Below, piece by piece: positions 37,442-41,452 of a stretch of 64,000 nt of DNA (the first letter of the stretch is position 1; every line of letters starts with the position of its first letter). This DNA comes from Escherichia phage vB_EcoM_Ozark. Location of the stretch: the sequence record NC_054927.1. The stretch is one strand, 5' to 3'. The translations under genes were made by a program, and so were the position numbers. Under the pieces are notes generated by a model. That model was not told where the DNA came from. It did no database searches and worked only from the letters and a program-made list of their open reading frames with translations.

Positions 37442-38173
37442 ATGAAATCTGGAATATATGCTATTATAAACACTAAAACCAATAAGCACTATATAGGAAG
37501 TGCAATTAATTTTGAAGAACGATGGAAACGACACTTTAAAGATTTAGATAATGGAAATCATCATTCAATAAAGCTGCAGCGTTCTTATAATAAGCATGGG
37601 AAAGATGCTTTCGTATGTAAAATCATAGAAGAACTTCCATACGAAAAATCTATCATTATTGAACGTGAAAATTATTGGATACATGAATATGACTCAAAGG
37701 AAAATGGGTATAATATAGCAGACGCATCGTTTGGGGATACCTTATCTCATCACCCAAGAAAGCAAGAAATCCTTAATAAAATTTCAAATGCAATTAAAAA
37801 TAATAATTCAAAATTATCACCAGAAGAACTTAAGCAAAAACATGGTAGACCTAAAGACATCAAAGGTAAAACTATAGAAGAACACTATGGGTTAGATCGT
37901 GCTATAGAAATAAGCAAAAAGTTCCAAGAAAGAAACGCTGCACTTAATATGAAAGGCATCAATAATCCATATTATGGACAGACACATACCAATGAAGTTA
38001 GAAAACGAATTTCTGACTCACAAAGAGGTAAAAAGAAACCCCATCTAAGAGTAAGTATAGATGGGGTAGAATATCCAACAATAGCAGAAGCTGTGCGTCA
38101 AACCGGAATAAGCAGAAAACTTATATCTAAAAGATGTGCTCTAGATTGTTGGGAATCATATTTATACTGCTAA
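37442..38173 (+). CDS. Free-standing GIY-YIG homing endonuclease, I-TevI-like catalytic domain
   Basis: 243 aa; N-terminal about 100 aa closely resemble remembered I-TevI ([36 protein letters not shown]); C-terminal region has NUMOD-like and HTH-like segments; only plus-strand gene in a 30-kb minus-strand block. Confidence 0.8.
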
Positions 38174-38407
38174 AGTTCTACATTCGTCATATTGTTTTTC
38201 CGTTAAAACAGTAATATCGTAGTAACAGTCAGAAGAAGTTTTAACTGTGGAAATTTTATTATCAAAATACTCACGAGTCATTTTATGAGTATAGTATTTT
38301 TTACCATAAATGGTAATAGGCTGTTCTGGTCCTGGAACTTCTAACTCGCTTGGGTTAGGAAGTGTAAAAAGAACAACGCCAGAAGTATCTTTAAATCGTA
38401 AAATCAT
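38162..38407 (-). CDS. Hypothetical protein immediately downstream of td
   Basis: 81-aa ORF whose ATG overlaps td stop (ATGA); its 3' end overlaps the convergent GIY-YIG gene by 12 nt. Confidence 0.5.
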
Positions 38408-39264
38408 ATTGCCATTTTCCCTTTAATTGCTGGATGCGATTCATAATTTTCAAGGATAAAATCTTTCGGTTTCATGTATTCAGTTAACCAGTAAAGCTGT
38501 GTTTCGGTGTCACAATTTCCAAACTCTATAGGCCAATCAATTTTAAGTTCACATAGTTCTTTAGGCTCACGACGTAAAATTTCTTTACATTGCTCAGTAT
38601 GATTCATATAGATGTGAGTATTACCACCAGAAAATATCAAATCTCCTGGGATAAGATTACACATCTTAGCCACAATATGCGTCAAGGCAGCGTACGAGGC
38701 AATGTTGAATGGCAATCCCAAGAAAACATCTACACTTCTTTGGTACCATTGTAAATCAAGATAACCATTACGCACATTAAACTGATAGAACATATGACAG
38801 GGCGGTAATGCCATTTGATTGATTTCAGCTGGATTCCATGCTGAAACGATTTGACGTCGATCAGTTGGTAATTTTTTAATACGATCAATAGTTTCAACTA
38901 ATTGATCCACACCACCGAAATCACGCCATTGTTTACCGTATATAGGACCAAGTTCACCACTATGATATCCTAGGTCTTTAGCCTGGTTTTCATAGTTATC
39001 GTCCCAAATAGTTTTACCTTGAATAAGACTACCATGAGTGCGAAGACGTAAATCATTAACATTGGTAGAACCGGAAATAAACCATAGAAGCTCAGCAATG
39101 CATGCATTCCAGGCGAGCTTCTTAGTTGTTACTGCAGGAAAACCTTTAGTTAAATCCCAGCGTAATTTAGTACCGAACAAAGCAATTGTTCCTGTGCCTG
39201 TTCGGTCATCGGTTTCATAGCCATTTTCAAAAATGTCTTTAATTAAATCTTGGTATTGTTTCAT
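38404..39264 (-). CDS. td: Thymidylate synthase, intronless
   Basis: Single continuous 286-aa ORF with ThyA motifs (active-site PPCH, DLGPIYG). Confidence 0.92.
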
Positions 39265-39309
39265 TTAGTACCTTATATAAATTATAATACATTTTATGAA
39301 GCTGAATAA

Positions 39310-39669
39310 TCAATACGGTTTAGCATCAAATTTTCTCTCAATTTCAGGTGTGAAATATAATTCTTTACCGCGTTTGGAAAAGCGACCAATAATATGATAA
39401 TTATTCTCATCAAACGTGATATTACCAATATCCATAGCTTTCAACCAAATATCGATATTTCTATCCAGCTTTATGTCAAAATTCCAATACGGAGAACTAT
39501 TACCGAAAATACTACAAGCGGATTCAGTGAAACAGCTACTATAAATCTTGTCTTTAGGAACTACTAATTGATAAACACCTTTAATAAACTGAGGACCTTG
39601 CCATTTTGGCTGTTTCGCGTCTTTTTCTAATAGAATAGGGTAATAATTAAAATTCATATTTTCCGCCAT
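39310..39669 (-). CDS. Hypothetical 119-aa protein inserted between frd and td
   Basis: ATG-initiated ORF 8 nt after frd stop with no clear RBS; no recognisable motif. Confidence 0.5.
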   Translation of the reverse strand: MAENMNFNYYPILLEKDAKQPKWQGPQFIKGVYQLVVPKDKIYSSCFTESACSIFGNSSPYWNFDIKLDRNIDIWLKAMDIGNITFDENNYHIIGRFSKRGKELYFTPEIERKFDAKPY

Positions 39670-39677
39670 GCGTTATT

Positions 39678-40504
<827 letters not shown>

Positions 40505-40515
40505 ATCATCTCCAA

Positions 40516-40848
40516 TTAAAAAGGATCAGGAACGTATCCGCTAGCTTTAATCATTTTAATTAACGTTAACATTCCTTTGTTAACTGCTCGTGAGATTTCA
40601 TCAAAAGCTTCAGGATTAAAAAGTTCTAACACGCCCTTCTGAACTTTTAATTTACAGCCAACAATTTCTTCATCGCCTATAGTAAATTCATTACCACCAA
40701 TTCCTCCGAAAAACTTAATTACACCAGTTAACTGTCTTCCACGAGAATATGGGTCGTGTGATAAATTAATATGAGTCACCCCGGGTACAGTTTTAAATTG
40801 GCAGCGAATGTTTACTTGGGAAATTCCAGTTACATGAATATCAGACAT
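40516..40848 (-). CDS. Hypothetical protein
   Basis: 110-aa ORF. Confidence 0.5.
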   Translation of the reverse strand: MSDIHVTGISQVNIRCQFKTVPGVTHINLSHDPYSRGRQLTGVIKFFGGIGGNEFTIGDEEIVGCKLKVQKGVLELFNPEAFDEISRAVNKGMLTLIKMIKASGYVPDPF

Positions 40849-40858
40849 AATATTTTCC

Positions 40859-41158
40859 TCAAACAGACTTTTTCACAATTTTCCAATCAGCTTTAAACTG
40901 TTCAACGTCAGAATGGTAAATCCAGAATCCTGCGCTTTCTCCATCCTCATAAAGAGGGCATCCATCACATTCATCTTCCCATCCCATATCACGCAAAAGA
41001 CGTTCAGCTTTTTCAACAAGTTCAGAATCTTTACCAATAATATTAAAATACCATTTACCTCTAACTTCTGAATCTTTGATACTCTGACGTTGTAATCTCA
41101 TTTTATTCTCCTTAGTTGATAAGGCTATAGTATCACTACCATAGCCTGTTGTAAACAA
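40859..41158 (-). CDS. Hypothetical protein
   Basis: 99-aa ORF; true start may be an internal Met. Confidence 0.45.
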   Translation of the reverse strand: MFTTGYGSDTIALSTKENKMRLQRQSIKDSEVRGKWYFNIIGKDSELVEKAERLLRDMGWEDECDGCPLYEDGESAGFWIYHSDVEQFKADWKIVKKSV

Positions 41159-41452
41159 TTATTTTTGAATTTTATCGAGCCACTTACCAAGCTTAATCAT
41201 TTCTTTAGTAGCCTTTTCCATACTTCTGAACTTAACCAATAGAGGATAGGTATCGACACCCATAACTAAACTGGTTACAAGACTGTGTTCACCCACAAGC
41301 CATAACGAATACGTTTGAATATCGAGCCCGTAATTTCTGTCTTTGTGGACCCGTACACCCATCACTTCAAATTTCTCACTAGCTTTTTCTACCGCATTCA
41401 GGAAATCATCTTTAGTCATATTAGGCCTTAAAAGTTTTTCGCAAAAGTTCAA
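41159..41452 (-). CDS. Hypothetical protein
   Basis: 97-aa ORF. Confidence 0.5.
   Translation of the reverse strand: MNFCEKLLRPNMTKDDFLNAVEKASEKFEVMGVRVHKDRNYGLDIQTYSLWLVGEHSLVTSLVMGVDTYPLLVKFRSMEKATKEMIKLGKWLDKIQK

Follow-up and report, generated by a model that had tools for sequence, protein, structure and literature searches.

In phage T4, nothing separates the genes for dihydrofolate reductase (frd) and thymidylate synthase (td), which overlap by 4 nt (ATGA; NC_000866; frd 145109..145690, td ..145112), as the initial annotation of the present locus had stated. In the 64,000-nt stretch of Escherichia phage vB_EcoM_Ozark analysed here (NC_054927.1; hereafter the window), the same two genes are separated by an open reading frame, which we call ORF A. 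Comparison with the T4 locus, together with a family HMM search, bore out the view that T4 has no homologous gene at this position; the HMM search, run over 9 kb of T4 at this locus and over the whole 64-kb window, found no second copy. We asked whether ORF A is a gene, whether it was gained here or lost in T4, and what its product might do.

Boundaries and start codon of ORF A

In the window, frd (193 aa; 39678..40259) is the upstream and td (286 aa, intronless; 38404..39264) the downstream neighbour of ORF A, all three being on the minus strand, and the interval 39265–39677 is exactly the gap between frd and td. The ORF listing and the sequence both confirmed that this gap holds a 360-bp, ATG-initiated frame of 119 aa (39310..39669, minus strand), directly after frd and before td. 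Its first-listed ATG lies 8 nt past the frd stop (TGA, 39680–39678), and its own TGA lies 45 nt ahead of the td ATG (39264).

The start conserved in all relatives compared is a later ATG, at 39657, which gives a product of 115 aa; the annotations of RB18, T2 and Bas43 use the equivalent start (115 aa). The codon equivalent to ATG 39669 is GTG in RB18, T2, L013 and L014, GCG in L016 and ACT in F2, and the position is out of frame in L015 and L016, where the spacer is 1 nt shorter. Judged from these alignments, ATG 39669 is probably not the functional start, and the four extra in-frame codons that it adds (MAEN; 39658..39669, minus strand) are found in this genome and a few others. We take the conserved coding sequence to be 39310..39657 (minus strand; 115 aa plus stop), the equivalent of RB32ORF229c in PHROG 1928, on the basis of start conservation, dN/dS and an AlphaFold2 pLDDT of 89. 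The absence of a clear ribosome-binding site, reported initially, holds for ATG 39669 but not for ATG 39657, which is preceded at 5-nt spacing by GGCGGA (39662..39667, minus strand), a weak Shine–Dalgarno-like sequence; other genera have GAGG, GAGGG or GGTG where the window has GGCGGA. At the other end of the frame, two IMG/VR alleles (L014:4013-4363 and L016:4004-4354) have the tail ..AKPLII in place of ..AKPY and stop two codons later, so the last residues of ORF A are not constrained.

The 45 nt between the ORF A stop and td (39265..39309, minus strand) are non-coding and contain the td Shine–Dalgarno sequence, AAGG, at 39274–39271. The same spacer carries AGCTTCA followed, after 10 nt, by TATAAT (39281–39303, minus strand), which resembles a T4 middle (MotA-box) or a sigma-70 promoter; in a promoter/terminator scan these hexamers were a consensus match only, at chance level. 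The arrangement is kept in RB18 and T2 and is missing in F2, where the spacer is only 13 nt. An Rfam search of 38000–41000 gave no match.

Relatives of ORF A and selection on the family

The initial annotation found no recognisable motif in ORF A. This stands for Pfam, NCBIfam and the defence-protein models of PADLOC, in which the protein had no match, but not for PHROG, where residues 8–115 match PHROG 1928 at E=9.5e-36. All of the relatives collected (55/55) match the same PHROG, and a Pfam scan of these 55 proteins gave scattered single matches only, each with E > 0.003.

Homologues were found by tblastn in 579 phage records. The 361 records at ≥90% identity are Tequatrovirus, including T2, RB18, RB51, RB3, PP01 and AR1, and they annotate ORF A as a hypothetical protein, often with the note 'RB32ORF229c'. 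The RB32ORF229c proteins of T2, RB18, RB51, AR1 and others are 97–100% identical to ORF A and occupy the same frd–td position; the only difference is the extra upstream in-frame ATG of the window, worth four codons. ORF A is thus a real gene in an already catalogued family, PHROG 1928, that has no assigned function, and its description as unannotated does not survive the comparison: the sequence is not new, GenBank having hundreds of deposits of the same protein under the name 'hypothetical'. Literature searches, by the names RB32ORF229c and phrog_1928 and more broadly, returned nothing on the gene.

The remaining ∼218 records, at 26–46% identity, come from Kanagawavirus, Jiaodavirus, Gelderlandvirus, Moonvirus, Winklervirus, Kagamiyamavirus and from a phage whose only classification is Marfavirus, and family members also occur in Providencia, Morganella, Erwinia and Edwardsiella phages. 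When 1.84 billion representative proteins were scanned in full with HMMER, there were 51 matches, about 47 of them real; these are all 95–148 aa long and none is fused to another domain. Weak matches to PEGA/CarboxypepD_reg-like repeat proteins (P0065, P0068, P0071, P0073) were rejected as homology because they derive from a G.Y.[LV] strand motif added up over the repeats, and the one match in a scan of bacterial genomes with the single ORF A protein, over 36 residues, was spurious. As far as these searches reach, the family is small and phage-restricted.

Several records carry more specific labels. In MZ501106 (Bas43), OR271596, OR125554, MN580668 and OK272484, ORF A is named 'putative homing endonuclease', 'putative glucose-1-phosphate adenylyltransferase' or 'putative dihydrofolate reductase', and our domain searches support none of the three. 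Dihydrofolate reductase was rejected because Pfam finds no DHFR_1 domain in ORF A, the true frd being the upstream gene. The present analysis thus corrects these misleading labels.

Pairwise dN/dS of ORF A is 0.00–0.09 within Tequatrovirus, with 17 synonymous and no nonsynonymous differences from T2 and 31 and 10, respectively, from F2; against two metagenomic relatives it is 0.05–0.13 (Nei–Gojobori in each case). By this measure, ORF A shows strong purifying selection.

Genes in the frd–td slot

The comparison of the frd–td junction across T4-like genomes, proposed at the outset as a check, covered ∼28 loci, and in every locus examined the gene order was frd–A–(B)–(C)–td. The ORF A family lies immediately after frd across at least ten genera, three distant members adjoin frd in further genera, and same-slot homologues in many genera are 26–66% identical. 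Outside Tequatrovirus, the slot genes overlap each other and frd or td by 1–20 nt.

B is a paralogue of A that falls in the same PHROG and has the motifs Q..W, HG.Y and GRF.K.G in common with it. It lies directly downstream of A in Kanagawavirus, Gelderlandvirus, Moonvirus, Winklervirus, Kagamiyamavirus and the phage classified only as Marfavirus, in the same slot and with a similar length, but it carries a conserved insertion of ∼19 residues after Q..W (..PTI..YKR.P..Y) that ORF A does not have; B is absent from the window and from all Tequatrovirus loci examined. C is a 68-aa ORF that is unrelated to A and has no Pfam match.

Within Tequatrovirus the slot is polymorphic, holding A alone, C alone or nothing. 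As estimates from search counts rather than a census, A alone is present in roughly 70% of records (361 of ∼513 with T4-like flanks), and C alone in part of the remainder, C being found at ≥90% identity in ∼135 records, a count that includes Dhakavirus JS10. The slot is empty in T4, its laboratory variants and HY03, and the ATGA junction is likewise empty in Mosigvirus ST0. Because ORF A is absent from T4, HY03 and Mosigvirus ST0, and is replaced by the 68-aa C in other Tequatroviruses, the comparison supports the suggestion made initially that it is an accessory gene, and shows it to be dispensable. Natural phages with and without the gene thus exist in one genus, which makes the family easy to test.

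The C gene was observed at L010:1354-1560 (Escherichia phage fHoEco02) and L006:3148-3354, where it overlaps both neighbours. The Tequatrovirus C is 98.5% identical in Dhakavirus JS10 and 79% in Klebsiella phage R3_1; its near-identity across genera points to recent cassette exchange at the frd–td slot.

Origin of the T4 junction

The initial annotation described ORF A as inserted between frd and td. The junctions themselves argue for the opposite polarity. In T4, HY03 and ST0 the junction reads GTATATAAATGAAACAATACC, which is the frd end of the window joined to the td start at TAAATGAAA. This 9-bp sequence is present in the window as a direct repeat, the left copy (39676..39684, minus strand) covering a frd Lys codon and the TGA stop and the right copy (39259..39267, minus strand) covering the td ATG, and the two copies (39684–39676 and 39267–39259) are 417 bp apart. 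In Tequatrovirus F2, frd runs 12 codons further (..VYKNEIATGGKYEF*) and shares 11 nt with ORF A, the two genes overlapping as they do in other genera. The A-run of the window is two bases shorter than that of F2, which brings the TGA into frame and creates the left TAAATGAAA copy.

As the simplest series, we envisage a starting state with a compact, overlapping frd–A pair, in which an indel would then have truncated frd; a 417-bp deletion between the TAAATGAAA repeats would have followed, giving the T4 state. The ATGA overlap of T4 is thus most likely a secondary state that arose by this deletion. Since the family is fixed after frd in every locus, the T4 junction has the form of a repeat deletion product and F2 has kept the compact overlap, we infer that A is more likely ancestral to the slot and T4 derived, and the term 'inserted' is not supported; the alternative, that A was regained in Tequatrovirus, seems to us the less probable course. 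Because Mosigvirus has the same empty junction, the deletion could be an old one, could have occurred repeatedly or could have spread by recombination. T4 is the outlier at a classic locus, and the 'overlapping frd/td genes' of the 1980s look like a deletion scar.

Co-conversion of exon sequence by I-TevI is a possible link between the td intron and flanking sequence (PMC2988022). That the absence of ORF A travels with the intron in this way was tested and rejected, since ORF and intron are both present in H138, H140, H154 and L013. The group I intron with I-TevI is found in td of T4, HY03 and fHoEco02; td of the window is intronless, with a continuous frame of 286 aa. Tequatrovirus has two classes of td allele, the window and T2 td proteins being 85.7% identical in amino acid sequence next to an identical ORF A protein.

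Predicted fold and conserved residues

The AlphaFold model of ORF A improved from a pLDDT of 78.5 with 27 sequences to 89.0, with a pTM of 0.82, with 55 sequences. It has strands at residues 10–16, 31–38, 66–68, 84–86, 90–100 and 103–108 and one helix at 72–80. A BFVD structure search returned only uncharacterised T4-like phage proteins, and profile searches of the PDB turned up nothing beyond noise (a transthyretin-like ancestor at E = 0.016; kappa-carrageenase and formin, both with E > 1). The modelled fold is without a confident solved neighbour. OB-fold domains such as those of Teb1, RPA, SSB and PriB may be like the model in strand order with one helix, and also in having a basic and aromatic conserved set; we treat the resemblance as a weak lead only.

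Residues W23, G95, K99 and G101 are invariant in A and B, and L13, G31, Y33, F97 and F106 are near-invariant, with R96 also listed as conserved. In the alignments, the window ORF A has L13, W23, G31, Y33, G95, F97, K99, G101 and F106, and no catalytic set of acidic, His or Cys residues is among the conserved positions. The median pI of the family, 8.6, is mildly basic. As modelled, the product is a single-domain alpha+beta protein of ∼115 aa without a catalytic motif. What the analysis defines is a compact, strongly constrained, phage-restricted family with two paralogue types and no structural or sequence relative. The new points are modest ones: the corrected start codon, the A/B/C anatomy of the slot, a repeat-bounded deletion that would explain the T4 overlap, and the lack of a structural relative.

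Possible roles of ORF A

Taken together, we think it reasonably probable that ORF A is a true early gene of the Tevenvirinae, conserved yet dispensable, old at this slot and deleted to give the T4 overlap, and that its product acts by binding. The gene would be co-transcribed with frd and td, whose stop and start codons it overlaps in most genera, and its protein would act in the pre-replicative period. Binding rather than catalysis is suggested because the family has no catalytic residue set and no catalytic domain and is mildly basic.

What the protein binds is a matter for more tentative argument. Small early T-even proteins with solved roles are mostly host-takeover or counter-defence factors, and we prefer the reading that ORF A is likewise a host-directed accessory factor, for host takeover or counter-defence, although we would put this at somewhat under an even chance. 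It is suggested by the slot being a site of variable cassettes (A, C or nothing in one genus), by C being nearly identical across genera, and by A having been duplicated to B and being repeatedly absent. That ORF A keeps its place between frd and td in all genera and loci examined could instead point to a role in the thymidylate arm of dNTP synthesis, as an accessory partner or regulator that binds dihydrofolate reductase, thymidylate synthase or their ligands, is kept at a fixed ratio by translational coupling and is helpful without being essential. In most genera it overlaps the frd stop at its start and the following gene at its stop; moreover, it is at least as conserved as frd (63% versus 48% against L028) and is under strong purifying selection, all of which would suit such a partner. 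But the same pathway operates in T4, HY03 and Mosigvirus in the absence of ORF A, the unrelated C can fill the same slot, and no family member is fused to either enzyme, while overlap and fixed order carry little weight because almost every small gene in genomes this compact shows them. We rank this explanation a close second, and regard it as possible but rather unlikely. Still more doubtful is a small OB-fold-like binder of ssDNA or RNA, such as a regulator of translation or one associated with replication, with which the median pI and the conserved W, Y, R, F and K of the family would be consistent.

Two further explanations can effectively be set aside. A free-standing homing endonuclease gene, or its remnant, invading the frd–td junction would account for the label in Bas43 and ValerieMcCarty04, in BASEL phages and in some Klebsiella phage records. 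T4, moreover, lacks ORF A at a site that has short direct repeats on either side, and true homing endonuclease genes do occur in this neighbourhood; presence or absence, compared with T4, at an intergenic position among the nucleotide-metabolism genes is a feature of ORF A and of seg and mob genes alike. Unlike them, however, ORF A has no nuclease or DNA-binding domain and shows a vertical, position-fixed, diverging pattern. No GIY-YIG, HNH, LAGLIDADG, PD-(D/E)XK or EDxHD domain was found by Pfam or PHROG in ORF A or 55 relatives, and in the same Pfam search the neighbouring true GIY-YIG gene scored 1.1e-15. The invariant and near-invariant residues (L, W, G, Y, G, F, K, G, F) offer no acidic, His or Cys catalytic set, and a slot that is fixed in every locus, with identity falling to 26–46% between genera under strong purifying selection, is not the sporadic and near-identical distribution of an invading gene. 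We consider this explanation effectively refuted. Even less credible is a spurious or non-functional frame, open by chance in a spacer. The weak Shine–Dalgarno sequence and the lack of a domain match would be expected of one, but it is refuted by the conservation pattern: the dN/dS of 0.00–0.09, the homologues of 26–66% identity in the same slot across genera and the confident AlphaFold2 fold.

Neighbouring genes

The other small early ORFs between gene 32 and nrdA of T4 (frd.1/DUF5417, frd.2, frd.3, DUF7247, nrdA.1/DUF4326 and nrdA.2/DUF5496) are like ORF A in being short, syntenic across T4-like genera, co-transcribed with nucleotide-metabolism genes and without an assigned function. They differ in having Pfam families, mostly since T4 carries them, whereas the ORF A family has none and does not detectably resemble them.

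A free-standing homing endonuclease gene with GIY-YIG, NUMOD3 and I-TevI-type DNA-binding domains lies at 37442–38173 (plus strand), between nrdA and an nrdA.2-like gene and on the opposite strand to them; T4 has nrdA.1 there. The arrangement is common to only 7 of ∼520 matching phage records. T4-like phages of Klebsiella have copies of this gene, at 87–88% identity, between nrdA and td, suggesting that it has moved from one genus to another.

Upstream of frd in the window are three more small minus-strand ORFs that are absent from the 32–frd interval of T4: one of 81 aa that belongs to PHROG 3183 (40259–40504), one of 110 aa with DUF7247 (40516–40848) and one of 97 aa with no family (41159–41452). 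T4 is gene-poor across the whole frd locus compared with most of its relatives.
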